This document shows positions 49,578-62,753 of a stretch of 64,000 nucleotides of DNA, piece by piece. The DNA is from Stenotrophomonas sp. (GTDB lineage: Bacteria > Pseudomonadota > Gammaproteobacteria > Xanthomonadales > Xanthomonadaceae). The translations under genes were made by a program, and so were the position numbers. The notes under the pieces were generated by a model. That model was not told the origin of the DNA. It did not search any database and saw only the letters and a list, made by a program, of their open reading frames with translations. Where the stretch lies: contig DATCVI010000061.1 of assembly GCA_036566925.1 (NCBI GenBank), forward strand, positions 19,338 to 83,337. The letters are read 5' to 3'. Every line of letters begins with the position of its first letter. Position 1 is the first letter of the stretch.

Positions 49578-50498
49578 GTGGCCACGGCGACTTTGTTGTT
49601 GCCGGCGCGCGCGCGCCTGCCGGGCGCGTTGCCGGCCGATGCGGTCGCCCATGCCCTGACCCGTGCCGACCGCGCCCAAGGCGCCGCCGGAGAGCGGGCC
49701 CAGTTGCAACGCCATTTCACCCTGGACGCCGAGCCCTGGCCGGTCGCCGCGCTCACCCGCCAACTCGATGCCGGCGACGCCGCCGGTGCCAGCTGGGTGC
49801 GCGCCGATCCGGCCTTCGTGGTGCCGGACATGCATGGCGCGCGGATGATGGCCTACGGCGAAGCGCTTGCGCTGGAGGCCGACGACCTGGCCGCGCTGCT
49901 GCCCGACCTGCGCCCGTTGTTTGCCGATGCCGGCTTCGTGCTCGATGCACCGGATCCGTCGCGTTGGTATGTGCGGCTTTCGCCAGAGGCACAGCTGCCT
50001 GAATTCGCCGAGCCGGAGTCCGCGCTCGGCGATGACTTGTTCGCGCACCTGCCGCCCGGCGAGGCCGGCCGCCGCTGGCGCGCCTTGTTGACCGAATCGC
50101 AGGTGCTGTTGCACCAGCATCCGTGGAACCGCCAGCGTGCCGCGCGCGGCAAGGCGCCGGTCAACTCGTTGTGGTTCTGGGGCGGTGGCCGCCTGGATAG
50201 CACGGTGGTTTCGCCACACGCCCAGGTGCGCAGCCGCGATGCGTTGTTGCGGGCCCTGGCCAAGGCCGCCGGCGTATCGGCCGACGTGGGCGCCAAGGTA
50301 GACGCGCTGGTCGACCTGCGCCACCTGCGCTCGTTGCAGCAATTCGGCGAGGATGCGGTGCAGCCGCTGCTGCTGGCGATGGCGCGCGGGGAGCTCGACC
50401 GATTGATTCTCGACTTCCAGGACGGCGAGATCCTGACGCTGGCGCACGCGCAGCGCTGGCGCTTCTGGCGGCGTCCCGCGGCGACTTTGGAAGGATGA
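49578..50498 (+). CDS. conserved hypothetical protein in the greA-recJ interval (the position occupied by rpfE in Xanthomonas, from memory)
   Basis: GTG 49578 lies 5 nt after the greA stop, and the stop overlaps the recJ ATG (ATGA). The sequence is coding-like. The identity is inferred only from synteny I recall. Confidence 0.6.
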   Translation: MATATLLLPARARLPGALPADAVAHALTRADRAQGAAGERAQLQRHFTLDAEPWPVAALTRQLDAGDAAGASWVRADPAFVVPDMHGARMMAYGEALALEADDLAALLPDLRPLFADAGFVLDAPDPSRWYVRLSPEAQLPEFAEPESALGDDLFAHLPPGEAGRRWRALLTESQVLLHQHPWNRQRAARGKAPVNSLWFWGGGRLDSTVVSPHAQVRSRDALLRALAKAAGVSADVGAKVDALVDLRHLRSLQQFGEDAVQPLLLAMARGELDRLILDFQDGEILTLAHAQRWRFWRRPAATLEG

Positions 50499-52225
50499 AG
50501 TCCGCCGCGCGAATCGTGCGCCGCGAGCCAGGGGCCGGTGGTGAATGGCCGGCAGATGTTCTGCCGCTATTGCAGCGGCTATATGCCGCCCGCGGCGCCC
50601 GCGATAGTGCCGCGGCCCAGCCCCGGCTGGCGGGTCTGCTGCCGCCGTCTGAACTGTCCAATATCGACACGGCGGCGCGGATGCTGGCCGACGCGATCGC
50701 CGCGCGGCAACGCATCCTGGTCGTCGGCGATTTCGACTGCGATGGCGCCACCGCCTGCGCGGTGGGCGTGCGCGGCCTGCGCATGCTCGGCGCCCGCGAT
50801 GTGCTGCATGCGGTGCCCAATCGCATGGTCCACGGCTATGGGCTATCGCCGGCGCTGGTCGCCGAGCTGGTGCCGCTGCGTCCGGACATCCTGGTCACCG
50901 TCGACCATGGCATCGCTTGCCACGCCGGCGTGGCAGCGGCGCGGGCGCAGGGTTGGACAGTGCTGGTCACCGATCATCATCTGCCCGGCGAGCGCTTGCC
51001 GCCGGCCGATGCCATCGTCAATCCGAACCTGCCGGGCGATGGATTTGCCAGCAAGACCCTGGCCGGCGTCGGCGTGATTTTCTACGTGCTGCTGGCGGTG
51101 CGCGCCGAATTGCGCGCCCGCGGGATGCTCGCCGAAGGCGGACCGGATCTATCTGTCTTGCTCGACCTGGTCGCGGTGGGCACCGTGGCCGACCTGGTGC
51201 CGTTGGACGTCAACAATCGCGCGTTGGTCTCTGCCGGTTTGCGCCGTTTGCGCCAGGGCCGCGGCTGCATTGGCTTGCAGGCGTTGATCGAGGTCAGCGG
51301 CCGCGATGCCGCGAGCCTGACCGCCAGCGATATCGGCTACGCGCTGGCGCCGCGGCTGAACGCCGCCGGCCGGCTGGAGGACATGGCACTGGGAATCGAG
51401 TTGCTGTTGTGCGAACAGCCGCAGCGCGCCGGCGAGATTGCGCAATCGCTCGAGTCGATCAATGCCGAGCGGCGCGCCGTGCAGCAAGTCATGACCGAGG
51501 AGGCGGAGGCCGCCGTGGCGCGTGCATTGCTGCTTGCTGACAGTCAGGCACCGCTGGCGCGCTGCCTGTTCGACCCGCAATGGCATCCGGGCGTCATCGG
51601 CCTGGTGGCTTCGCGGATGAAGGATCGCCTGCATCGGCCAGTAGTCGCATTCGCACCGGCCGAGCCGGACGCGACGGTGCTGCGCGGCTCGGCCCGCTCG
51701 ATCGCCGGGCTGCATATTCGCGACGTGCTGGCTGCGGTCGATGCGCGCCATCCGGAATTGATCGAGCGCTTCGGCGGCCATGCCATGGCGGCGGGGCTGA
51801 CCCTCGAACGCGCCGCGCTGCCCGCGTTCGAGCAGGCGTTGCTGGAGGAGGTTGCGCGCCAAGTCGATCCGACGCTTTTGCAGGCCGAACTTCTGAGCGA
51901 TGGCGAGCTGGCGCCGCATGAATTCGACTTTCGCCATGCCCAGGCCCTGAGGATGGCCGGCCCGTGGGGGCAGGGTTTCCCCGAACCCTTGTTCGATGGC
52001 GAGTTCGAAGTCCTGCAATGGCGTCCGCTGAAAGAGCGCCACCTGCGCTACAGCCTGCGTGCGCCCGGCCTGCCGGTGGCGCTCAATGCGATCCATTTCG
52101 ATGGCTGGCGCGGCGAGCCGCCGGCAAACCGCGTGCGCCTGGCGTATCGCCTTGTCTGCGATGACTACCGCGGCGGTGACGCGATCCAGTTGATCGTCGA
52201 GCATTGCGAGTCAGCCACGCGCTGA
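50495..52225 (+). CDS. recJ: single-stranded-DNA-specific exonuclease RecJ
   Basis: DHH motifs are present (VVGDFDCDGAT, VTVDHG, LVTDHH) together with the DHHA1 region (GGHAMAAG). Confidence 0.96.
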   Translation: MKSAARIVRREPGAGGEWPADVLPLLQRLYAARGARDSAAAQPRLAGLLPPSELSNIDTAARMLADAIAARQRILVVGDFDCDGATACAVGVRGLRMLGARDVLHAVPNRMVHGYGLSPALVAELVPLRPDILVTVDHGIACHAGVAAARAQGWTVLVTDHHLPGERLPPADAIVNPNLPGDGFASKTLAGVGVIFYVLLAVRAELRARGMLAEGGPDLSVLLDLVAVGTVADLVPLDVNNRALVSAGLRRLRQGRGCIGLQALIEVSGRDAASLTASDIGYALAPRLNAAGRLEDMALGIELLLCEQPQRAGEIAQSLESINAERRAVQQVMTEEAEAAVARALLLADSQAPLARCLFDPQWHPGVIGLVASRMKDRLHRPVVAFAPAEPDATVLRGSARSIAGLHIRDVLAAVDARHPELIERFGGHAMAAGLTLERAALPAFEQALLEEVARQVDPTLLQAELLSDGELAPHEFDFRHAQALRMAGPWGQGFPEPLFDGEFEVLQWRPLKERHLRYSLRAPGLPVALNAIHFDGWRGEPPANRVRLAYRLVCDDYRGGDAIQLIVEHCESATR

Positions 52226-52240
52226 GTCGCCATCGGTAGC

Positions 52241-52256
52241 ATGCGATGAATCGCAT
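52241..52256. promoter_or_regulatory. 7-2-7' palindrome ATGCGAT-GA-ATCGCAT (site 1), candidate response-regulator operator
   Basis: A perfect inverted heptad pair lying 22 nt upstream of a -10-like TAGATT (52279-52284) and 60 nt upstream of the DUF481 ATG. It is the exact reverse complement of site 3. Confidence 0.5.
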
Positions 52257-52315
52257 ATCGCGGGGTCCTGGCCCTCACTAGATTGCCCGTTCCTCATTTT
52301 CATACGGGTAATCTG

Positions 52316-53092
52316 ATGCATCGCAAACCTGCTGGCACCGTATTAGGGGCCGCCCTGGGCCTGGCCCTGGCTTTCCCGACGCTGGCCCAAACAGCGCCTG
52401 CCCCTACGCCGGAATGGACCGGCAGCGGCGAGTTCGGACTGACCAGCGCCAGCGGCAACACGCGCTCGCAGAACCTCAATGCGCAGCTCAAGGCTGGCTT
52501 GAATGACGGCAACTGGCATCACAACGCGACCGTGTTCTGGCTGCGCAACCGGGGCGAGACCAAGCCGGGCAATGGCGTTACGCCGGGCAACCAGGAAATG
52601 CGCGACACCGCAAACCGCTACGGCCTCGGCCTGTCGTCGGCCTACGACCTGAGCGCGCGCAGCTACCTCGTCGGCGGCGTACGCTACGACCACGACAACT
52701 TCGCTACTTATCTTTGGCGCGGTGTGGCCTCGGTCGGTTACGGCTATCGCTGGTTCGACGATGCACGGATGCGCCTGCTGACCGAGATTGGGCCGGGCTT
52801 CCGCCGCAGCCACGACAAGAAGACCGGCAAGGTCGAGAATGAGGCCATCGGTCGTGGATTCGCCGATTTCAGCTATCGGCTCACCGACAACACCAAGTTG
52901 CTGGATAGCGTCCTGGTTGAATCCGGTCGACTGGGCACCTTCGTGCAAAACGATCTGGGCGTGCAGGTGGCCATGAGTCAGCGCCTGGCGCTGAAGCTTG
53001 GCTACCAGGTGCGCTACAACAGCAAGGTGGACCCGGGTTTCAAGAAGACCGACACCGTCACGATGTTGAATCTCGTGTACGCGGTCGAGTAA
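52316..53092 (+). CDS. DUF481 family outer-membrane beta-barrel protein (YdiY-like)
   Basis: Signal peptide MHRKPAGTVLGAALGLALAFPTLAQT. WTGSGEFGLTSASGNTRSQNLNA, with alternating beta-strand patterns through to the C-terminal LNLVYAVE. Confidence 0.85.
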   Translation: MHRKPAGTVLGAALGLALAFPTLAQTAPAPTPEWTGSGEFGLTSASGNTRSQNLNAQLKAGLNDGNWHHNATVFWLRNRGETKPGNGVTPGNQEMRDTANRYGLGLSSAYDLSARSYLVGGVRYDHDNFATYLWRGVASVGYGYRWFDDARMRLLTEIGPGFRRSHDKKTGKVENEAIGRGFADFSYRLTDNTKLLDSVLVESGRLGTFVQNDLGVQVAMSQRLALKLGYQVRYNSKVDPGFKKTDTVTMLNLVYAVE

Positions 53093-53098
53093 AGACGA

Positions 53099-53128
53099 CG
53101 CCTGCCATCCCGCTCGGGGTGGCAGGCG
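53099..53128. terminator. hairpin between convergent genes (possible bidirectional terminator)
   Basis: CGCCTGCCA (53099-53107) pairs with TGGCAGGCG (53120-53128) around a 12-nt loop. There is no clear U-tract. Confidence 0.4.
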
Positions 53129-53129
53129 C

Positions 53130-53888
53130 TCAGTACCAGGATGTGCTTGCGCTGGCCTGGGGCTCGGCCTCGTTGCCCTCCATCTCATCCAGCCAGCGGG
53201 TCATGACGGCATGGCAGGCGTGACGAAGGCGTTGCATCGACTCGCTGGCCTGCATACGCAACAGCATCGGGTCCACCCACGCGCTGGACGGGGATTGCGT
53301 CAGGTGCTGTAGGCGCGCATTGAGGTAGTCCATGTCCGCTTCAAGGTGGAACTGGAGGCCCAGGATCTGCGGGCCGCGGCGAAAGGCCTGGACCCGGTCG
53401 GCGGCAGTGGACGCCAAACGCTGCATCGTGTGGGGTAGCACGATTTCATCGCGATGCCAGTGCAACACGGGCGTGCTGTGCCTCAAAGGGGCCAGGCAAG
53501 AGCGCCTGCCTGCATCGGAGAGTTCGACGGCAGCGAAGGTGATCTCGGGCCGGGTCATCGGTTGAACACTGCCGCCGAGTGCACAGGCGATGAGTTGCGC
53601 ACCCAAGCCAATGCCCAGCATCGGCAGGCCGAAGTGCGAACGCGCACGCACGAGGTCCAGGATCTCCTGTGAAAAATTCGCCACGGGCGCTTCGTTGGCC
53701 AGGGACATATTGCCAAGCAGCAGCAGGATGTCGACTTCCAGTGGGTCGATCGAGCGGATGCGCTCGGGCACGGCGGCGCAGTAGCGTGTCCGGTAGCCGC
53801 GGCTCTCCAGGATGGGCCGCAGCGTCCCCATGCTGTCGTGCGGGCCGCAGCGAAGCGCCACGGCTGATCTGGGGGGGGGGGACATCAC
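53130..53888 (-). CDS. class I glutamine amidotransferase-like protein lacking the nucleophilic Cys (probable pseudo-enzyme)
   Basis: It aligns along its length with COG0518-type GATases. The nucleophile elbow reads LGIGLGAQL instead of LGICLGAQL (Gly codon GGC at 53607-53609), while GLQFHLE (His/Glu) is retained. Confidence 0.8.
   Translation of the reverse strand: MMSPPPRSAVALRCGPHDSMGTLRPILESRGYRTRYCAAVPERIRSIDPLEVDILLLLGNMSLANEAPVANFSQEILDLVRARSHFGLPMLGIGLGAQLIACALGGSVQPMTRPEITFAAVELSDAGRRSCLAPLRHSTPVLHWHRDEIVLPHTMQRLASTAADRVQAFRRGPQILGLQFHLEADMDYLNARLQHLTQSPSSAWVDPMLLRMQASESMQRLRHACHAVMTRWLDEMEGNEAEPQASASTSWY
53871..53881. repeat. homopolymeric G11 (C11 on the coding strand) tract
   Basis: 11 consecutive G at 53871-53881, encoding S-P-P-P (codons 3-6) of the GATase-like ORF. 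Confidence 0.95.
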
Positions 53889-53979
53889 GACAGACGTCCT
53901 GCGGCGGCGAGTCCATGGCGGTGCACGCAGGCCCTGCGTCGGTTTGCGGGATGCGGGTCAAGCTTTACGCAAATCGCGC

Positions 53980-54564
53980 TCATTTCATCGGCCGGCGGTC
54001 AGACTGCGCGCGGCGATGGGCGTGCGTGCGCGGGGAAAGTCGCAGCGGCAACGGCGGGGCGATCGCCGCAGGCGGGGCCTCGGCGGCGACGGAAAGCGGA
54101 TCGTCCTGGTGCATTTGCAAGCGGAGATAGCCGGCGCGCACCGCCTGGCGTGCCTCGTGCCATTCGACCCGCGAGTGCCGGCGCAAACGCGCGTAACGCG
54201 GCGCCAGCCGCTGCTCGTCCAGTGCCTCCAACAGATAGTCGTGGCACTGCAGGAACAAGCTGATGCCCAGGGTGAATGCCGGTACGTATTCGTCGAACGG
54301 CAGTATGTCGCGATGCCATGTCGCGGTGCGTTGGTAGTGCGCCCGCCAGAAGGCAAGCTCGCCGTCCACGTCCACCACGCTGGGTGACAGCGGCGAGGTG
54401 CCGACAGCCGCCACGGAGTACAGCACCAACTCTGCACACAGCCAATGCGGGCGCCCAGGGTCTGCATCCAGGATGCCGCTGCTCCCTCGATGGTCGCTCG
54501 CTCCCACGCTGCCGGGTCTGGTCGGTGGGGCAGGGCCCAGGGTCATCGGGTATTTGGGAAGCAT
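53980..54564 (-). CDS. hypothetical protein with an aromatic-rich helical C-terminal domain
   Basis: The frame of track ORF 53980..54606 has strong third-position G/C bias and a protein-like core (ELAFWRAHYQRT..PFDEYVPAFTLGISLF...VEWHEARQAVRAGYLRL). The start is uncertain (54564 or 54546). Two other overlapping frames were rejected. Confidence 0.5.
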   Translation of the reverse strand: MLPKYPMTLGPAPPTRPGSVGASDHRGSSGILDADPGRPHWLCAELVLYSVAAVGTSPLSPSVVDVDGELAFWRAHYQRTATWHRDILPFDEYVPAFTLGISLFLQCHDYLLEALDEQRLAPRYARLRRHSRVEWHEARQAVRAGYLRLQMHQDDPLSVAAEAPPAAIAPPLPLRLSPRTHAHRRAQSDRRPMK

Positions 54565-54697
54565 GGCGTGTGTATCGGTCTGACGAAGTGCGTCGATGCA
54601 CGCCAAACTAACTAACAGCTGCTTCCGGTGATATATGATTTTTCGAATGCCGCTGGGCGCAGTCTCCCAGTAGCAGCTGCGGGCCGCGTGGCTATCG

Positions 54698-57600
54698 TCA
54701 GGGCCCTGGCGTTTCGGTTTCCTGGAGTCCTGCCAGTTCGACGCACACGGCCCGGAGCGCTTGCATGAAGTCCTCGCAAGCCCGCCTGTGCAGACTCAAT
54801 GAGTCCAGCTCCAGCGCGCTGCTCAGGTCGCGCCCGGTCATTGCCAGCTGGTTATAGCCGAAGTATCCAAGTGCACCCGAAACGCGGTGGAGGCGGCGGG
54901 CGACTTCCAGCACATCGTCGCGCGAGAGTGCGCTTTCGATCTTCGTCATGTCATCGGCGGTGCTGTCCAGGAAAGTTCGCAGCAGCGGTTGCAGGTGATC
55001 GCCCAGGCGTTGACGCAGTTCATGCACGTGGCCGGCTGGGGCCCGTTGGACGGGATCGGCTATCCATTTCGCCAGGACGCGCGCGAGCTGGGCGAGGTTG
55101 ACGGGTTTGTGGATCTGTGCGTCCAGGTTGCCGGCGCCAGTGGTCAGGTGCACTTGGTCGAGCACGTTGGCGGTCATGGCAATGACCGGTATGCGACCTC
55201 CGCTGGACGCTTCGCGCTCGCGAATATGATTGGCCAGGGCATGCCCGTCCATCTTCGGCATGCTGATGTCAGTAAGGACCAGTGAAGGAGACATCTGGTC
55301 GAGGACAGCTAATGCGGCTTCGCCATTGTCGGCGATGACGTAGGGATATCCCAGTTCCTTCAATTGCAGTCCAATCAGTAGCTGGTTGGTCGGATGGTCT
55401 TCCACCACCAGGATCGGCGGCACGTTACGAGTCTGCGTTGCGCGCGAGACTTCGGAAGGGTGGGCCTGTCGAGTCGCAGGTTGCTCGAACAATGCGTGCA
55501 GCGTGCGCTGGAGTAGGTTGGGCACCAGCGGATCGATGGCGACATGATGCAGCGGCGCGGGGACGGTGGCATTGTGCGGTTGCAGGACAATCGCACGCAG
55601 TGTGCGGGGATCGCTGGAGGGCCCGGCGGGAATGCGATCGCCAATCCACACGTCCGGCAGCGTCAGGTCCGAATGGTTGACATCCATTCCCCAAGTGTCG
55701 AGCAGGCTGCGGACCGCTTCAGCCAGGGCCGGATCGGCGAGCTCCAGGTGCACCGTGCGGTTGACCAGGAAAGGGTCGGGCTGGGCATGGGGTCGCTTGA
55801 CTGGCAACTCGATGGTGACCGTCAAGCGGGTGCCGCGTCCTTCTTCGCTCTGGAGCGACAACTCGCCGGCCATGAGTTCGACCAGTTGCTTGCAGATCGA
55901 AAGGCCCAGGCCGGTGCCGCCGTAACGACGCGTCGGGGTGGCATCGGATTGGACGAACGGACGGAACAGCGATTCTTGCTGGCTGGCTGGAATGCCTACA
56001 CCGGTGTCGCTCACCGTAATCCGAATGCGCTGCAGTGTGTTGGCCGGCGGGGGCGAGGGCTGGTCCACTTCGACCTCGACCACCACTTGGCCCTCGTGGG
56101 TGAACTTGACGGCATTGCCCACCAGGTTGAGCAGCACCTGGCGCAGGCGGAAAGGGTCGCCGACATGCACCGCGGCCAGCCCCGGCGCCAGCGACATGCG
56201 CAATGACAGGCCCTTCTTCCGTGCCTGGGGCGCGAAGATTTCCAGGGCGGCGCCGACGATGTGCTGAATGTCGAGTTCAATTCTCTCCAGCCTGATCTCG
56301 CCGGCCTCGGCCTTGGAGAAGTCCAGGACATCATCGAGAATCTGCCGCAATGCGGCGGCGGAATCGGCACTGGTTGTCAGTAGTTGTCTTTGCGCCGGAT
56401 CCAGCGACGTGCGGCCGAGCAGTTCCAACAGACCGGACAATCCCGCCATCGGGGTTCGGATTTCGTGGCTCATGACGGCCAGGAAGTTGGCTTTGGCGGT
56501 GGCGGCGGCCACCGCAGCGGCACGGGCTTGTTCAAGCGCTTCGTTCTGCTCGTGCAGCCAGGTCGAATCGACCCAATAGCCGGACCAGTGAATCGCGCCG
56601 TCTTCGAGTTGGCGCGGCACGCCATTGAGCGAGATCCAGCGCAGCCCTTCGGCACCATTGGCGTGGAAGTCGTACAAAAGCGGGCTTAAGGCCTCGGCCG
56701 AAACCTTGAGCGCGGCCAGCAGGCCCGGCCGGTCGGCCTCCACCACGCGGCGGAGCAGGGCGCGGGCGTCATCGAGGATTTGCGCGCTCTCCAGGCCAAA
56801 CAGCGGCCTGGGGTTGCCGGCAACGTAGGTAAAGGCATACTCGCCGGCCCGCGAGCGACGCAGCTTGAACACGACCGCGGGCAGGTTGCGCGAGATTTCC
56901 CGCAACCGGATGTCGACCTCGCGACGACGCGCAATCTCGGCTCGCAGGCGCAAGTATGCCGCGACCAGCAGAGCGATGACGATCAGTGCCGCGGCGCTGC
57001 TCCACAGCACTACCGGCCGGGCGATGCCGTATTCGTAATCGACCTTGAGCCAGCGCTTGCGGATGTGCTGGCGGGTATCGTCGTCCATGCCCTCGACGAC
57101 ACGGTTGAGCAGCGGCACCAGCTTGGCATACGGCTCCCGCACTGCCAGCCCGACGCGATCGGCCAGTCCGGCCGGCGCGGCCACCTGCAGGCCATCGTAG
57201 CGGTGGTCGCGCAAGCTGTTGTCCACCGACGCCAGATTGCCCACATAGGCATCGGCGTCGCGTTGCATGACCTGGCGTAGGGCGTTGCTCTCGCTGGTTA
57301 CCGTAACGTGGGTTGGCTCGGGCAAACGGCGCGCCAGGCGCTCGGCCAGCCCAGGGTCGGAGACCAGGACTCGTTTGCCGGACAGATCGTCCAGGTCGGC
57401 GACAATATCGGTGTCGTAGCGTTTGACGATCACGCTGGGAAAGGTCACCAGCGGGCGCGTGAGATGCCACTGCGGCCCGTAGTCGGCATCGCTCACGGCT
57501 GGCGCGATGTCGGCTTTGCCGGCCATCACCAGTTCGCGCGCCTGGATCCAGTTGTGCGCGGGAACCACGACCACCCGCAGGCCCAGCTCGTCTTCCATGC

Positions 57601-58621
57601 GTTGCAGGTAGTCGCCGAGGATGCCGGACATGCGGCCGTCCTCGCCACGCACCGTCAGTGGCGCCCAGGTGGGATCGAAGGCGATCCTCAGCTCCGGCAA
57701 TGAAGCGACCCAACGTCGTTCCGCTTCGCTGAACAGCGGCGAGCTACCGGCCCACTGCATGCTCGGCTCGAACCAATGAGCCCGCATTCGCTTTCTTGCC
57801 TGTGGCGCGATGTCGGCCAGGGCGTGGTCCAGCGCGGCCGCCAGTTCTCCGCGGTCATTGGGCGTGGCGAAGTGCAAGGTGTTGGGGGGAAGGCGTGCAG
57901 GGCCCATCAGGGCGAGCCCCGGCTGCGGTTCGGCGCGCATATGTCGCGCCACCACATGGGGATCGCCGATATAAGCATCGGCGCGGCCGCTGGCGACTGC
58001 GGCCAGCGCGCTGCGCACGTCCGGCACCGTCAGGACCTGCCAGGTGGGGTGGATGTCGGTGAGCGTCTTGCTCAGGAAGTGCCCATCCTCGATCGCCACG
58101 CGCAGGTTGGGTGGGGGCGGCTGAAGGCGATCGGCCTCCTCCCGGCGTCCCACCATGGCGGGGTGCACGGTCTCGTAGGCGTGGGTGTAGGCCAGGCAGC
58201 GCGTGCGCTGAGCGGTGATCGATACGCTCATCAGCACGTCCACCTCGCCCCTGCAAGCCGCCTCCAGCAGAGTGGGCCAGTCGGCATAGATGCGGGGTCG
58301 CAAGCCAATGCCCAGGCGCGTAGCTATCGCCTTCAAGTAGTCGTAGGACAAGCCGTCGAGCCGTCCCTTGGACTGGATTTCGTAGGGCGGCCAACCGGCC
58401 GTCGTGCTGCCGACCGTGATGATGGGATGCTTGTTCAGCCATTTTCGCTCGCGCGAACTTAATTCAAACGAGGCCATGGCCTCGGCGCGAGATGTTGTGG
58501 CCTCCGCTTGGGCTGGAGATGGCGCGGCACGCCGCGCAGCGAGGGCAGCAGTGCCGCCCGCCCATGCAAGCACCAGCAGCAGGCCCGCTACTATTTTGAC
58601 CGCGTGCGCCGAGCGGCCCAT
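54698..58621 (-). CDS. BvgS/EvgS-like hybrid sensor histidine kinase (2 periplasmic SBP_bac_3 domains-TM-PAS-HisKA-HATPase-REC-HPt)
   Basis: 1307 aa with a signal/TM N-terminus and two solute-binding (Venus-flytrap) domains. TM IVIALLVAAYL, PAS, H-box SHEIRTPMAG, G-box GTGLGLSICK, receiver ILVVEDHPTNQ...LVLTDISMPKMDG, and C-terminal HPt (RRLHRVSGALGYFG). Confidence 0.92.
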   Translation of the reverse strand: MGRSAHAVKIVAGLLLVLAWAGGTAALAARRAAPSPAQAEATTSRAEAMASFELSSRERKWLNKHPIITVGSTTAGWPPYEIQSKGRLDGLSYDYLKAIATRLGIGLRPRIYADWPTLLEAACRGEVDVLMSVSITAQRTRCLAYTHAYETVHPAMVGRREEADRLQPPPPNLRVAIEDGHFLSKTLTDIHPTWQVLTVPDVRSALAAVASGRADAYIGDPHVVARHMRAEPQPGLALMGPARLPPNTLHFATPNDRGELAAALDHALADIAPQARKRMRAHWFEPSMQWAGSSPLFSEAERRWVASLPELRIAFDPTWAPLTVRGEDGRMSGILGDYLQRMEDELGLRVVVVPAHNWIQARELVMAGKADIAPAVSDADYGPQWHLTRPLVTFPSVIVKRYDTDIVADLDDLSGKRVLVSDPGLAERLARRLPEPTHVTVTSESNALRQVMQRDADAYVGNLASVDNSLRDHRYDGLQVAAPAGLADRVGLAVREPYAKLVPLLNRVVEGMDDDTRQHIRKRWLKVDYEYGIARPVVLWSSAAALIVIALLVAAYLRLRAEIARRREVDIRLREISRNLPAVVFKLRRSRAGEYAFTYVAGNPRPLFGLESAQILDDARALLRRVVEADRPGLLAALKVSAEALSPLLYDFHANGAEGLRWISLNGVPRQLEDGAIHWSGYWVDSTWLHEQNEALEQARAAAVAAATAKANFLAVMSHEIRTPMAGLSGLLELLGRTSLDPAQRQLLTTSADSAAALRQILDDVLDFSKAEAGEIRLERIELDIQHIVGAALEIFAPQARKKGLSLRMSLAPGLAAVHVGDPFRLRQVLLNLVGNAVKFTHEGQVVVEVEVDQPSPPPANTLQRIRITVSDTGVGIPASQQESLFRPFVQSDATPTRRYGGTGLGLSICKQLVELMAGELSLQSEEGRGTRLTVTIELPVKRPHAQPDPFLVNRTVHLELADPALAEAVRSLLDTWGMDVNHSDLTLPDVWIGDRIPAGPSSDPRTLRAIVLQPHNATVPAPLHHVAIDPLVPNLLQRTLHALFEQPATRQAHPSEVSRATQTRNVPPILVVEDHPTNQLLIGLQLKELGYPYVIADNGEAALAVLDQMSPSLVLTDISMPKMDGHALANHIREREASSGGRIPVIAMTANVLDQVHLTTGAGNLDAQIHKPVNLAQLARVLAKWIADPVQRAPAGHVHELRQRLGDHLQPLLRTFLDSTADDMTKIESALSRDDVLEVARRLHRVSGALGYFGYNQLAMTGRDLSSALELDSLSLHRRACEDFMQALRAVCVELAGLQETETPGP

Positions 58622-58627
58622 GTCGGC

Positions 58628-59281
58628 TCAGCCCAGCCAACCCTGCGCGCGCACGTATTCGAACAACGCCGCGTCTGTGGATAGGCCCAACTTGCGCATC
58701 GCGTCCTTCTTCTGTTTGCTCACCGTCTTGGTACCGCTGCCCAGTCTTTCCGCCACTTCGCTCGGGGTGGCGCCCAGCGCAAGCATGCGCACCACCTCGG
58801 TTTCGCGCGGGGACAGGCGCGGCGGCGGGACCGCTTCGCTGCCGGGCTGGTGCAGCAGCGCCAGCTTGCTGCGGAAGCTGGCGCTGACGAAGCGGCGTCG
58901 CCGCGACGCAGACAGGATCGCGGTCGGCAGTTCGTCCATCGAAGAACTCTTGTCGACCACGGCAAGAACGCCGTGCGCGAGCAATATCTGGATCATGCCG
59001 GGGTTGGCCATCATCGTTAGCACCACGATGGGCATCAGCGGGTAGCGGCGCCGGACCTCGGAGATCAGTGCCAGTCCATCGGCACCACCGGCGTCGGGCA
59101 TGGAATAGTCGGTGACCAGAACATCACAAACCGTATCGGCGAGTCGGTCGTACGCTTCGTTGACCGAGCTGGCCTCGGCGGCCACCTGCAGTTGTGGAAC
59201 GGATTTGAGAACAGCACGCACGCCGGCGAGCACGACGGGATGGTCGTCGGCGACGATGACGTTGAGGGCCTGCGTTTCCAT
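58628..59281 (-). CDS. NarL/FixJ (LuxR)-family response regulator, BvgA/EvgA-like
   Basis: METQALNVIVADDHPVV..., phospho-acceptor context VLVTDYSMPD, VVLT and VVDKS. C-terminal LuxR HTH (LSPRETEVVRMLALGATPSEVAERLGSGTKTVSKQK). SD AAGGTG precedes ATG 59281. The stop lies 6 nt before the kinase start. Confidence 0.92.
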   Translation of the reverse strand: METQALNVIVADDHPVVLAGVRAVLKSVPQLQVAAEASSVNEAYDRLADTVCDVLVTDYSMPDAGGADGLALISEVRRRYPLMPIVVLTMMANPGMIQILLAHGVLAVVDKSSSMDELPTAILSASRRRRFVSASFRSKLALLHQPGSEAVPPPRLSPRETEVVRMLALGATPSEVAERLGSGTKTVSKQKKDAMRKLGLSTDAALFEYVRAQGWLG

Positions 59282-59447
59282 TGAGTCACCTTGAATCGAC
59301 ATGGCCGGGAACCCGGCACATTGAGAGGTGGCCACCACCCACCGCGCTCAACGAAGCAGCAAACGCTAGGTAATGGTGGCTGCCATAGCCGGACTGCAGG
59401 ATCATGAATAGCCCAAGCTGAAAACTCAGTCTCTGCTTCGAGATTAC

Positions 59448-59463
59448 ATGCGATATATCGCAT
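59448..59463. promoter_or_regulatory. 7-2-7' palindrome ATGCGAT-AT-ATCGCAT (site 2)
   Basis: A perfect 16-bp palindrome in the response-regulator/aqpZ divergent intergenic region. It is immediately followed on the plus strand by the extended -10-like TGTAATAAT (59464-59472). Confidence 0.5.
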
Positions 59464-59564
59464 TGTAATAATGCAGTTTCTGATTGCGTGAATGCCGAAA
59501 GCGGGTTGCGGCGACCGGCATTGCGGGTGCGTGTGAACACGCCCGTGAAAAGGGTGCGCCGAGC

Positions 59565-59580
59565 ATGCGATTCATCGCAT
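59565..59580. promoter_or_regulatory. 7-2-7' palindrome ATGCGAT-TC-ATCGCAT (site 3)
   Basis: It lies 22 nt upstream of a -10-like TTCAAT (59603-59608) and 99 nt upstream of the aqpZ ATG. The spacing to the -10 is the same as at site 1. Confidence 0.5.
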
Positions 59581-59678
59581 GGAGCTCAGCGTGGTCGCTT
59601 CGTTCAATACCGGTTCCCGTCGCGGACCGCCAGCTTTGCTTGCGCGGTTGCCGAGCGACGCTATCGAGAACGAAGTCC

Positions 59679-60422
59679 ATGCAAAGTTTGACGAGCAAGT
59701 GTGCGGCCGAGTGCCTGGGAACTTTCTGGCTGGTACTTGGCGGATGCGGCAGTGCCGTTTTCGCCGCACACGCCGGCGGTGATTTCAATCCAATGGGATT
59801 GGGCTACCTGGGCGTCTCGCTGGCGTTCGGCCTGGCGGTCGCAACCGCGGCGTTCGCCTTCGGCGCCGTATCCGGCGGCCACTTCAATCCGGCAGTGAGC
59901 TTCGGCCTGTGGATCGGCGGGCGGTTCTGCGGCCGGCACTTGCCCGCCTATGTGGCCAGCCAGGTCGCAGGTGGCCTGCTGGCAGGTTCGCTGCTGTGCG
60001 TGATTGCCAGTGCCAGCCCGGACTACATGCCGCCTGACGGCGCCGGTGCATTCGCCACCAATGGCTTCGGCGCGTTTTCACCCGGCGGCTATCCGATGGA
60101 AGCGGCCTTCCTCGCCGAATCGGTGCTGACGGCGGTATTCGTCTACGTGATCCTCGCAGTGACCCGTCCGGGGGCACCGGTGGGTTGGGCGCCGTTGGCG
60201 ATCGGCGCGACCCTTGCGCTGATCCACATGATTTCCATCCCGATCACCAATACTTCGGTCAACCCGGCTCGTTCCAGCGCTGTGGCCGCTTTCGTCGGCG
60301 CCAGCGCAGGGCATGCGCCATTGCACCAGCTCTGGCTCTTCTGGGTGGCGCCATGCCTCGGTGCGTTGGCCGGCGCGGTGGTGTACCGCGCCATCAATGT
60401 CGAGCGGATGGAGCGGCCGTGA
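59679..60422 (+). CDS. aqpZ: aquaporin Z
   Basis: MQSLTSKCAAECLGTFWLVLGGCGSAVF, with two NPA boxes (HFNPAVS, SVNPARS). Internal ATG of track ORF 59484..60422. Confidence 0.95.
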   Translation: MQSLTSKCAAECLGTFWLVLGGCGSAVFAAHAGGDFNPMGLGYLGVSLAFGLAVATAAFAFGAVSGGHFNPAVSFGLWIGGRFCGRHLPAYVASQVAGGLLAGSLLCVIASASPDYMPPDGAGAFATNGFGAFSPGGYPMEAAFLAESVLTAVFVYVILAVTRPGAPVGWAPLAIGATLALIHMISIPITNTSVNPARSSAVAAFVGASAGHAPLHQLWLFWVAPCLGALAGAVVYRAINVERMERP

Positions 60423-60583
60423 CCTCGCCACGCTTGAGCACATTCGTGGTCGCACTGCTGCTGGGCCTTGCGGGTCTGGCGGCGCGGATCGGCTACCTGA
60501 GCTGGCTGGAACCGGTGTCATTCGGCTTGCTGGCGGTGGGCTATCTGCTCCTCACGCTGGGCGTACTCGTGCCTCGCCTGTAG
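60419..60583 (+). CDS. putative small two-TM membrane protein (54 aa)
   Basis: GTG 60419 overlaps the aqpZ stop (GTGA). VTSPRLSTFVVALLLGLAGLAARIGYLSWLEPVSFGLLAVGYLLLTLGVLVPRL contains two hydrophobic helices. Confidence 0.4.
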   Translation: MTSPRLSTFVVALLLGLAGLAARIGYLSWLEPVSFGLLAVGYLLLTLGVLVPRL

Positions 60584-60604: not shown

Positions 60605-61360
60605 ATGCGTATCCTTGTCATCGAATCGCGTCGGGACGTTTCCGTTCCATTGGTCAATCATCTCGAGAGTGTTCGACATTGCGTGGATTTCGCGGCCGAC
60701 GAATTGCTGGCCGCCCACCTGCTGTGTACCAACCGCTTCGACGCCATCGTCCTGGCCGAGCGCCTGCTGGACCAATGTGGCCTGAGAGCGCTGGAGCGGC
60801 TGCGGCAATTGATGCGCAAGCAGCTGCCGGTGCTCATGCTCGGGGCCCAGGGTTCCTCGGTGCCTCGCCTGGGCGATGGCGTCGGGCCGGACGACTACCT
60901 GGTGCCGCCTTATTCGCTCGATGCGATCACCGGCCGGCTGGGGATCCTGCGGCGACGGCGAGGCAAGAGCAGGGCCCAGTTGCGGATCGGCGACCTGATC
61001 TTTGACCTCACGGTTCAGCAGGTCACCCGGCAAGGGCAGGCCTTGCGGATCGATCCGACGCTGCTGTCGATGTTGCAGGCGCTGATGGAGGCGTCGCCCA
61101 AGCGGGTGTCGTTCCGAGAGTTGGGCAGTTGCCTTTCCGACGAGCCGACGCCGGTGGCGGAGGCCAGGGTGCGCGTGCGCATGCGCGCCTTGCGCGATTT
61201 GCTCGATCGGCCTTTCGATTTGCCGATGATCCGCAATCGCCGCGACGGCTTTTGCATCCTGCCGCCGGACGGCAAGGTGGTGTCCGCGGCGCAGACTGCT
61301 GGGTCGAGCAGGGACCACGCCGCATCGCGGCGTAGCGGTACGGCGCTCCACGTTTCCTGA
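60605..61360 (+). CDS. orphan OmpR/PhoB-family winged-helix regulator with a degenerate (pseudo-)receiver domain
   Basis: MRILVIESRR (DD->ES), AIVLAERLL (phospho-Asp->Ala), PVLMLGAQG (Thr->Gly), GPDDYLVPPY (Lys->Pro). The C-terminal trans_reg_C-like domain reads LRIGDLIFDLTVQQVTRQGQALRIDPTLLSMLQALME..., RNRRDGFCIL. Confidence 0.8.
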   Translation: MRILVIESRRDVSVPLVNHLESVRHCVDFAADELLAAHLLCTNRFDAIVLAERLLDQCGLRALERLRQLMRKQLPVLMLGAQGSSVPRLGDGVGPDDYLVPPYSLDAITGRLGILRRRRGKSRAQLRIGDLIFDLTVQQVTRQGQALRIDPTLLSMLQALMEASPKRVSFRELGSCLSDEPTPVAEARVRVRMRALRDLLDRPFDLPMIRNRRDGFCILPPDGKVVSAAQTAGSSRDHAASRRSGTALHVS

Positions 61361-61500
61361 AGCGTCGCCGATGGCTGGGGTCGTCGGCGGCCCCAGTGCG
61401 GAAATTTCCAATGGCGGTGCCGAGGGGCGCTCGCCGATGATGGAATTGGCTTTGGAATGGCCGTCGGGGCTCGCCCCGATCTGGCAAGGGAGTGTCGCTC

Positions 61501-61535
61501 GGCGCCTGTCGGTTCACGTTCCGCCGACAGGCGCC
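61501..61535 (+). terminator. perfect 12-bp hairpin (possible terminator of the OmpR-like gene)
   Basis: GGCGCCTGTCGG (61501-61512) pairs with CCGACAGGCGCC (61524-61535) and is followed by GATTTGG. The U-tract is weak. Confidence 0.4.
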
Positions 61536-61587
61536 GATTTGGCCGGGCCGTTTCCAGGGCCGACCGCCGTCGCGGCAAAGCCGGATT

Positions 61588-61596
61588 TGTTAGAAT
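61588..61596 (+). promoter_or_regulatory. extended -10-like element TGtTAGAAT upstream of prfB
   Basis: TG at 61588-61589 and TAGAAT at 61591-61596, about 32 nt before the prfB ATG. Confidence 0.35.
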
Positions 61597-61627
61597 CGCG
61601 GTTTCCTTGATCGAATCTGCCACGGAC

Positions 61628-62753
61628 ATGATGGAACTCAATCCCGTCCGCCAGCGCATCGCCGACCTGAAGGGTCGGCTGGATGCGCTCAGGGGGTACC
61701 TTTGACTACGACAGCAAGGTCGAACGTCTCGAAGAAGTAAACCGGGAGCTGGAAAGCCCCGACATCTGGAACAACGCCGAACGCGCCCAGGCGCTGGGCC
61801 GTGAGCGTTCCTCGCTGGAAAAGGTCGTCATCGGCATCCGCACCCTGACCGATGGGCTCACCGGTGGCGAGGAGCTGCTGGAATTGGCCGAGATGGAAGG
61901 CGACCAGTCGACCGTCGATGCGGTCATCGCCGACGTCGAGCGCCATGCCCGCGATGTGGAGAAGCTGGAGTTCCAGCGCATGTTCTCCGGGCAGATGGAT
62001 AGCGCCAATGCGTTTGTCGACATCCAGGCCGGTGCCGGTGGTACCGAGGCCCAGGACTGGGCCGAAATCCTGCTGCGCATGTACCTGCGCTGGGCCGAAT
62101 CGCGCGGCTGGAAGACCGAATTGCTGGAAGTGTCCGGCGGTGAAGTGGCCGGCATCAAGTCGGCGACCTTCCGCGTGGAAGGCGACTTCGCTTATGGCTG
62201 GCTGAAGACCGAGACCGGCGTGCACCGGCTGGTGCGCAAGTCGCCGTTCGACTCGGACAACCGCCGCCACACCAGTTTCACCTCGCTGTTCGTGTCGCCG
62301 GAAGTCGACGACAAGATCGATATCCAGATCAATCCGGCTGACCTGCGCACCGACGTCTACCGTTCTTCGGGCGCCGGCGGCCAGCACGTCAACAAGACCG
62401 AATCGGCGGTGCGCATCACCCACGTGCCCACCAACATCGTCGTCGCCTGCCAGACCGAGCGCAGCCAGCACGCCAACCGCGACCGCGCCATGAAGATGCT
62501 CGCGGCCAAGTTGTACGAGCTGGAGATTTCAAAGCGCAACGCCGAGAAGGACGCAGTGGAAGCCACCAAGTCAGATATCGGCTGGGGCAGCCAGATTCGC
62601 AACTACGTGCTCGACCAGAGCCGGATCAAGGATCTGCGTACCGGCATCGAGCGCAGCGATACCCAGAAAGTGCTGGATGGCGATCTCGATGAATTCATCG
62701 AGGCCAGCCTCAAGTCCGGCCTGGAAGTCGGCGCCAAACGCATCGACGCCTGA
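61628..62753 (+). CDS. prfB: peptide chain release factor 2 (two frames joined by a programmed +1 frameshift: 61628..61702 + 61704..62753)
   Basis: ORF0 [25 protein letters not shown] ends at the in-frame TGA 61703-61705. The +1 frame continues [11 protein letters not shown]... and carries SPF (KSPFDS) and GGQ ([10 protein letters not shown]). Confidence 0.96.
61691..61706 (+). promoter_or_regulatory. prfB programmed +1 frameshift site
   Basis: SD-like AGGGGG (61691-61696), then TAC, then the slippery/stop motif CTT TGA C (61700-61706), as in E. coli prfB. Confidence 0.93.

Follow-up and report, generated by a model that had tools for sequence, protein, structure and literature searches.

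The recJ-prfB block and its palindromic sites

In the window of Stenotrophomonas DNA considered here (the whole stretch that was analysed, 64 kb), recJ and prfB are separated by a block of ∼9.4 kb, referred to below as the island, which runs from a DUF481 gene to an OmpR-like gene, encodes a two-component system and contains several copies of a short palindrome, ATGCGATNNATCGCAT, that probably represent operator sites of the response regulator of that system. The regulator, an RcsB-like protein of the NarL/FixJ family (58628-59281, minus strand; Pfam Response_reg and GerE), is proposed as the binder of these sites and is encoded beside a BvgS/EvgS-type hybrid sensor kinase of 1307 aa (54698-58621, minus strand), identified by its Pfam domains. 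The remaining genes of the island are candidate targets. The first is the DUF481 gene, which encodes a protein of the outer-membrane-barrel type (52316-53092, plus strand; Pfam PF04338, E 2.4e-48). The second consists of orf194 (53980-54564, minus strand) and, downstream of it, a gene for a class-I glutamine amidotransferase (53130-53888, minus strand; Pfam GATase). The third is the aquaporin Z gene aqpZ (59679-60422, plus strand), which is followed by a small membrane open reading frame (ORF) of 54 aa with two hydrophobic stretches (60419-60583, plus strand) and by a gene for an OmpR-family regulator with a degenerate receiver (60605-61360, plus strand).

Three exact copies of the palindrome are present in the window, where 0.01 were expected, and none of 100 dinucleotide-preserving shuffles reached three, in agreement with the original prediction that the copies are non-random. 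Site 1 (ATGCGATGAATCGCAT, 52241-52256), a perfect palindrome, lies upstream of the DUF481 gene, between it and the recJ stop codon. Sites 2 (ATGCGATATATCGCAT, 59448-59463) and 3 (ATGCGATTCATCGCAT, 59565-59580) occupy the divergent spacer between the response regulator gene and aqpZ, 167 nt 5′ of the regulator start codon and 98 nt 5′ of the aqpZ start codon, respectively. The sequence confirms that all three are intergenic and that site 3 is the exact reverse complement of site 1, as had been stated. When up to three mismatches were allowed only two extra matches appeared in the window, both at chance level. The earlier statement that no further full copy exists holds for exact copies but overlooked a degenerate one. 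A weight matrix trained on the orthologous copies of sites 1-3 only detected, as the sole further strong match in the 64 kb, a fourth site (site 4, 54633-54648; ATTCGAAAAATCATAT on the minus strand, ATATGATTTTTCGAAT on the plus strand), which is located in the 91-bp gap that separates orf194 from the kinase gene and scores 17.5 bits, a level at which 0.044 matches are expected per 64 kb. A candidate weak fifth site, ATCTGATGCATCGCAA (52311-52326), overlaps the DUF481 start codon and keeps a GA-N4-TC core, with matrix scores of 10.6-11.9 bits for the window and as much as 15 bits for the orthologous locus L003. It may represent a downstream site of low affinity or simply reflect conservation of the start codon and coding sequence with which it overlaps; since the two sources of conservation are confounded, it was not counted as a site.

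The regulator protein was scanned against 185,579 species genomes, which gave seven orthologous loci, all from Stenotrophomonas, and placed the organism of the window near S. panacihumi; RecJ homologues added loci L072-L075, of which L073 duplicates L006. The resulting comparison set comprises 11 genomes (the window and 10 other Stenotrophomonas), with RecJ proteins 74-99% identical, and contains 42 sites. In both intergenic and site-anchored alignments each site forms an island of conservation within a diverged spacer, pairwise identity being 0.71-0.81 over the 14 specified motif positions and 0.29-0.39 in the 25 nt upstream. G5, A6, T11, C12, and A15 are invariant in all 42 sites, T16 is found in 41 and T2 in 39; position 4 is C in 28 sites and G or A in 11 (G in 10), and position 13 is G in 29 and C or T in 12. 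For the clade as a whole the consensus reads nTkbGAw-NN-nTCsmAT, a pseudo-palindrome built on a constant GA-N4-TC core, so that the 7-2-7′ palindrome described originally, although exact in the window, is a lineage-specific form. Site 1 reads GTGCGAwGnrTCsAAT, with diverged flanks, in eight other genomes, and site 3 reads CTkbGAwTCGTCGCAT, followed by GGAGCT, in 10 of 10. Site 2 is conserved in the 10 other genomes, with a degenerate copy in L072 (8.1 bits), and site 4 is found in the same gap in all 10, being weaker in L007 and L075. Loci L072-L075, which were outside the matrix training set, carry sites at the expected places. Exact and two-mismatch searches for the palindrome in 68 loci encoding relatives of the regulator gave matches in L001-L003 only; the poor conservation that such searches first suggested was dropped as an interpretation, since the alignments show that the sites are conserved in degenerate form.

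Perfect arms of 7 bp in the window, together with the position of site 1 at 16 nt past the recJ stop codon, could also be taken to indicate a structural element, such as an RNA or DNA hairpin, a recJ terminator, or a repeat of the repetitive extragenic palindrome (REP) or miniature inverted-repeat transposable element (MITE) type. The loop of such a hairpin would be only 2 nt, however, and neither a T-run nor a terminator-like site was found, a consensus terminator scan having returned no terminator. All seven arm pairs are complementary in the three window sites and once each in L001 and L003, but elsewhere only 3-6 of the seven are, and the half-sites of the relatives vary independently, without compensatory changes. 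Arm pairing is not maintained in the relatives, and a hairpin function is thereby ruled out. Moreover, similarity between the copies stops at 16 bp, an Rfam scan of 51.5-61 kb gave no match save a sub-threshold chance one inside the regulator gene, and repeat copies were found outside the island neither in the 64 kb nor in about 1.2 Mb of other loci. A structural role for the palindromes is accordingly very hard to credit.

Promoter architecture at the sites

Sites 1, 3, and 4 are each followed, at a fixed spacing of 22 nt, by a −10-like hexamer, which is TAGATT at site 1 (52279-52284, plus strand; predicted start near 52291), TTCAAT at site 3 (59603-59608, plus strand), and TAGTTT at site 4 (54605-54610, minus strand). 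The first two had been noted from the window, and both were found to be conserved in the orthologous loci. TAGATT, replaced by TACATT in a single genome, shows a pairwise identity of 0.96 across orthologues and precedes a conserved GCCCGyTC; every orthologue has TTCAAT or TCCAAT at site 3, with A as the next base (0.93), and the hexamer at site 4 is TAGTTT, TAGCTT, or TAGCGT at an identical distance in all orthologues (0.85). A consensus promoter scan detected no sigma-70 −35/−10 pair at sites 1 and 3, where the hexamers at the 17-bp −35 position, TATCGC and TGGAGC, respectively, do not constitute an acceptable −35. If transcription starts ∼7 nt past the hexamer, the site centres would fall at about −42 to −43, and the combination of a −10-like hexamer spaced by 22 nt with the lack of a good −35 suggests an activator bound near −42. 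The class-II-activator-like placement put forward in the original prediction is supported by the fixed spacing at three promoters, as far as predicted starts allow.

A comparable arrangement is known for the class-II promoters of LuxR and TraR, at which a GerE-type dimer binds a palindrome over a poor or missing −35 and the lux box lies near −42.5. The likeness lies in the predicted centre of the island sites; LuxR and TraR are ligand-binding quorum-sensing receptors that recognize a box of 18-20 bp, and not phosphorylated response regulators as here. RcsB boxes at activated Escherichia coli promoters abut the −35.

Activation rather than repression would be the expected mode of action from this architecture. 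The main mechanistic alternative is that the bound regulator represses by blocking the −35 region, the genes being on only when the system is off, and to this a rather small probability is assigned. The sites do overlap the −35 position, and BvgS-type kinases are active by default. RcsB boxes that overlap core promoter elements can repress, as at gadA (PMC2887963). On the other hand, sites 1 and 3 offer no acceptable −35 that could be occluded at the 17-bp position and the −10-like hexamers are weak to moderate; a weak −10 accompanied by an absent −35 would be typical of activator-dependent promoters.

The only sigma-70-like pair matched by the scan, ATTACA-18-AATAAT with an upstream TG (59443-59472, plus strand), has site 2 in its spacer. 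It is lineage-specific, not being conserved beyond the closest relative, and is probably fortuitous. The extended −10, TGTAATAAT, which had been reported to adjoin site 2 is indeed present in the window but is not conserved in the relatives. In the DUF481 leader (52285-52309), a stem GCCCGU...ACGGGU is found right after the −10-like hexamer and the GCCCGyTC segment is near-invariant in orthologues; the fold of the leader RNA is no better than that of shuffles (z = −0.75).

The regulator, its kinase and the distribution of the motif

The receiver and helix-turn-helix domains of the regulator are recognized well above the Pfam cutoffs (Response_reg, 67.8 bits vs. 30.2; GerE, 34.3 bits vs. 23.5), and residues D12, D13, D58, T89, and K111 align with RcsB D10, D11, D56, T87, and K109, so that the phospho-acceptor set is complete. 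Its closest solved relative is RcsB (PDB 5vxn/5o8y), at E 1e-36 over 206 aligned residues, with DevR, VraR, NarL, and EvgA far behind (E 1e-14 to 1e-11), and homologues at 45-50% identity carry the JGI annotation RcsB. RcsB also provides the best NCBIfam match (NF008098), although the score of 144.3 bits is under the cutoff of 235 and indicates that the protein is not RcsB proper. Comparison with EvgA (PDB, E 4e-11; NCBIfam, 52 bits vs. a cutoff of 251) indicates that it is not a BvgA/EvgA orthologue either. The description of the regulator as BvgA-, EvgA-, or NarL-like has consequently to be abandoned in favour of an RcsB-like protein, and it is the kinase alone that resembles BvgS and EvgS.

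The RcsB box, TN(G/A)GA-N4-TC(T/C)NA, is read mainly by K180, while I179, T181, S183, and S184 also contact bases (PMC7913699). The island motif has the same 5-4-5 pseudo-palindromic geometry, T..GA-N4-TC..A being kept in 39-42 of the 42 sites, and some half-sites of the relatives, TTGGA and TCCAA, match the RcsB box exactly. RcsB and the island regulator also share their receiver and GerE architecture. Their recognition helices read I-K-T-I-S-S and T-K-T-V-S-K, respectively, so that K180, T181, and S183 (RcsB numbering) are kept in the regulator and I179 and S184 are replaced by T and K; the helix, GTKT(V/I)SKQKKDAMRKLG, is shared by every orthologue. In the paralogues at 45% identity, K180 is replaced by T, S, or N, and the motif is missing. 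The I179T and S184K replacements would be compatible with a shifted half-site preference.

A dimer of GerE type is expected to bind an inverted repeat, as the island site is. NarL, a more distant relative of the regulator (E 1e-11), provides a known case in its 7-2-7′ sites, inverted heptads 2 bp apart that are bound by a GerE-type dimer. The island sites are laid out alike, although their heptads bear no relation to TACYYMT, the heptad of NarL.

The kinase contains two SBP_bac_3 stretches, Phosphonate-bd, HisKA, HATPase_c, Response_reg, and Hpt domains (Pfam) and scores under the cutoff of every NCBIfam equivalog (EvgS, 250 bits vs. 1995; the RcsC and RcsD models far below). Its layout of two periplasmic solute-binding-type domains, HisKA/HATPase, receiver, and Hpt is shared with the kinases of the BvgAS system of Bordetella and the EvgAS system of E. 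coli. In these systems, as in the island, the kinase gene lies beside that of a NarL/FixJ-family regulator, and autoregulation is likely in the island. EvgA is, however, only distantly related to the island regulator and the island motif has no known resemblance to BvgA or EvgA sites. The comparison with the Rcs system is the converse one, since the partner of the island regulator is a BvgS-type kinase with periplasmic solute-binding-type domains, in contrast to the RcsC, RcsD, and RcsF partners of RcsB, and the regulon seen consists of four promoters in one island, in contrast to the global RcsB regulon. The system would pair an RcsB-type regulator on RcsB-type boxes with a BvgS/EvgS-type sensor, and is neither RcsB proper nor BvgA/EvgA. 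In L073 (14242-18107), which is metagenome-assembled and comes from the same organism as L006, the kinase is called as two ORFs, one of 1063 aa and one of 235 aa containing the receiver and Hpt domains, a pattern that points to either a frameshift or a kinase split in two; the locus still has intact copies of the four motif sites.

Two Herbaspirillum loci encode a regulator of 32% identity whose recognition helix, SLKTISTQKKSAM, is RcsB-like, and in both of them a sequence that fits the RcsB box perfectly (ATAGGAATAATCCTAT or ATAAGAATAATCTTAT) is found about 600 bp upstream of the regulator gene (L050, 6039-6054; L052, 495-510). This hints that the RcsB-type box is widespread in the regulator subfamily.

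All four sites lie inside the island. The prfB-to-recJ synteny is held in each of the seven orthologous loci from the regulator scan, and the DUF481 gene is absent from L007 and L075, where the island is otherwise kept. [Pseudomonas] boreopolis has prfB-lysS-rpfG-rpfC immediately after recJ, while the junction is filled by EAL and PPC-domain genes in S. acidaminiphila and by DUF1176 and VgrG/Rhs genes in S. maltophilia. The block can thus be regarded as an insertion, because the interval between recJ and prfB is empty in one relative and filled with unrelated genes in others; the junction (52226-52315 and 61361-61682 in the window; loci L069-L071) is a variable insertion spot in the bacterial family. 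No matrix match of at least 11 bits was detected in the 64-kb window outside the island, which, as far as the window goes, speaks against the possibility, considered in the original prediction, that the motif is a dispersed repeat. Likewise, no match of at least 12 bits was detected in three recJ loci without the island, only about four matches of at least 17 bits were found in roughly 1.1 Mb of paralogue loci, and the motif was not found upstream of the 45%-identical regulator paralogues of the S. maltophilia group, Pseudoxanthomonas, and Cupriavidus.

The proteins of the island form groups of their own. Regulator orthologues from the species genomes are 83-97% identical, followed by a gap to at most 47%, and in a collection of 5.8 billion proteins the corresponding values are at least 84% and at most 50%. 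Homologues of the island AqpZ are 71-93% identical, followed by a gap to at most 64%, and represent an island-specific allele. No site was found upstream of the nearest non-island aqpZ genes, whose neighbours are pirin genes and do not include a two-component system. Since both island-free loci and non-island aqpZ genes are without the motif, it travels with the island and not with aqpZ or recJ.

This distribution bears on the question of whether the sites might be targets of a regulator whose gene lies in another part of the genome, such as a CRP/FNR-family protein, as the TGCGA...TCGCA look of the palindrome might suggest. In the CRP site, TGTGA-N6-TCACA, and the FNR site, TTGAT-N4-ATCAA, GA and TC are six bases apart, whereas the distance is four bases in 42 of 42 island sites. 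The predicted centre near −42 does correspond to the class-II position of CRP/FNR, −41.5 (PMC3950696), but the restriction of the motif to an accessory island, and its absence from relatives without the island, would be hard to explain by a core-genome regulator. Binding by such a protein is considered unlikely, and the RcsB-like regulator of the island itself remains the preferred candidate.

With regard to the candidate target genes, the start of orf194 was corrected, from an invariant CATG in the alignment, to the conserved ATG at 54564. The protein has no Pfam or NCBIfam family match and possesses Pro/Ala/Arg-rich ends and a core of ∼90 aa (residues about 60-150) that is common to 83 unannotated representative proteins of about 100-150 aa without a Pfam family; orf194 is a member of this unannotated family, paired here with a glutamine amidotransferase. 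The latter is PRK07053-like in NCBIfam, with 183 bits under a cutoff of 250. AqpZ is identified as aquaporin Z by NCBIfam (289 bits vs. a cutoff of 256). The GTG start codon of the 54-aa ORF overlaps the aqpZ stop codon (GTGA), the two genes are probably co-transcribed, and a gene of 54-56 aa is called at the same place in L072-L075; the small membrane protein that it encodes may act as a partner to the aquaporin. The OmpR-like protein, which gives weak Pfam Response_reg and Trans_reg_C matches, carries D51→A, K101→P, and EDD→ESR changes when aligned with BasR and is probably a phosphorylation-independent, second-tier regulator; its gene, located downstream of aqpZ, is a possible further member of the regulon. 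Beyond the island lie recJ (50495-52225, plus strand; Pfam/NCBIfam) on the left and prfB (from about 61.63 kb) on the right. In prfB, CTTTGAC at 61700-61706 is the classic +1 programmed frameshift site of the release factor 2 gene, where the short upstream frame (ORF 61457-61705) meets the main frame.

Proposed regulatory circuit and its significance

The proposal that the palindromes are operators of the adjacent NarL/FixJ-type regulator, and that they define a local regulon, receives computational support from the footprints in 10 genomes, the confinement of the motif to the island, the fixed 22-nt spacing at three promoters, and the RcsB-box geometry, and the regulator is the probable binder of the sites. 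The regulon originally listed, namely the DUF481 gene, aqpZ with the small ORF, and the regulator gene itself, is upheld by conserved sites, but the list omitted the fourth promoter, that of orf194 and the amidotransferase gene.

Several observations weigh against this interpretation. The link between regulator and sites is circumstantial, and the transcription starts on which the promoter positions depend are predicted, not mapped. The third base of the half-site is mostly C (28/42), in contrast to the G or A of the RcsB box, and the specificity of the regulator must therefore differ from that of RcsB. At site 2 no convincing −10 is found at 22 nt, where the pairwise identity of the hexamer position is only 0.60; a conserved TTTCAG (CTGAAA at 59418-59423, on the minus strand TTTCAG) lies 23-24 nt from the site on the regulator side but is a poor −10 match, and the L072 copy of the site is degenerate. 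Confinement to the island was judged on the window and the relative loci, and further genomic sites may exist. Finally, the OmpR-like pseudo-receiver protein (60605-61360) is another DNA-binding protein encoded by the island.

Binding of the operators by this OmpR-like protein instead of the RcsB-like regulator is nevertheless improbable. Its gene belongs to the same island, follows the site-3 promoter, and is preserved in every orthologous locus (72-90% identity), and the protein has a winged-helix Trans_reg_C domain. However, members of the OmpR/PhoB family typically bind direct repeats arranged in tandem with a spacing of about 10-11 bp, and the island sites are inverted repeats with an invariant GA-N4-TC and RcsB-box geometry. 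The Pfam scores of the OmpR-like protein are below the cutoffs, and it is less conserved than the RcsB-like regulator (83-97%).

In the circuit proposed for the RcsB-like regulator, the BvgS-type kinase would sense a periplasmic ligand via its two solute-binding-type domains and phosphate would be relayed along a His-Asp-His(Hpt) pathway to Asp58 of the regulator. The phosphorylated regulator would dimerize and occupy the four 16-bp pseudo-palindromes, and at about −42 the dimer would act as a class-II-type activator, standing in for the −35 contact. The promoters activated in this way would be those of the DUF481 gene, of orf194 and the amidotransferase gene, and of aqpZ with the small membrane ORF, perhaps together with the OmpR-like gene. 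The fourth operator, site 2, situated before the regulator-kinase operon, would provide autoregulation, which is probable from its position.

It can be speculated that an aquaporin, a small membrane protein, and an outer-membrane barrel together serve a role in water or solute flux and in the envelope. More tentatively still, and with rather less than even confidence, the block might be viewed as a self-contained, horizontally acquired sense-and-respond cassette, in which a BvgS-type sensor and a re-tuned RcsB-like regulator (CGA not RGA) control an undescribed water/solute-flux and envelope programme that includes a second-tier regulator. Its output could comprise the water channel, the small membrane partner, the DUF481 barrel, the amidotransferase pair, and the phosphorylation-blind OmpR-type regulator.

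Literature searches for a link of DUF481 or aquaporin Z to two-component systems in Stenotrophomonas yielded nothing relevant and no description of the island system. The system is limited to a small environmental clade of Stenotrophomonas, and local regulons under an autoregulated two-component system are textbook knowledge, so that its general impact is modest. If the interpretation is correct, the island would nonetheless offer a compact model in which a sensor, a regulator, four operators, and about seven target genes are contained in 9.4 kb and a DNA-binding domain of the RcsB type is paired with a sensor of the BvgS type. The changes beside Lys180 (I179T and S184K) would then be ones that shift half-site preference, aqpZ would represent a rare aquaporin gene under direct two-component control, and a first regulatory context would be provided for DUF481 and for the unannotated orf194 family.

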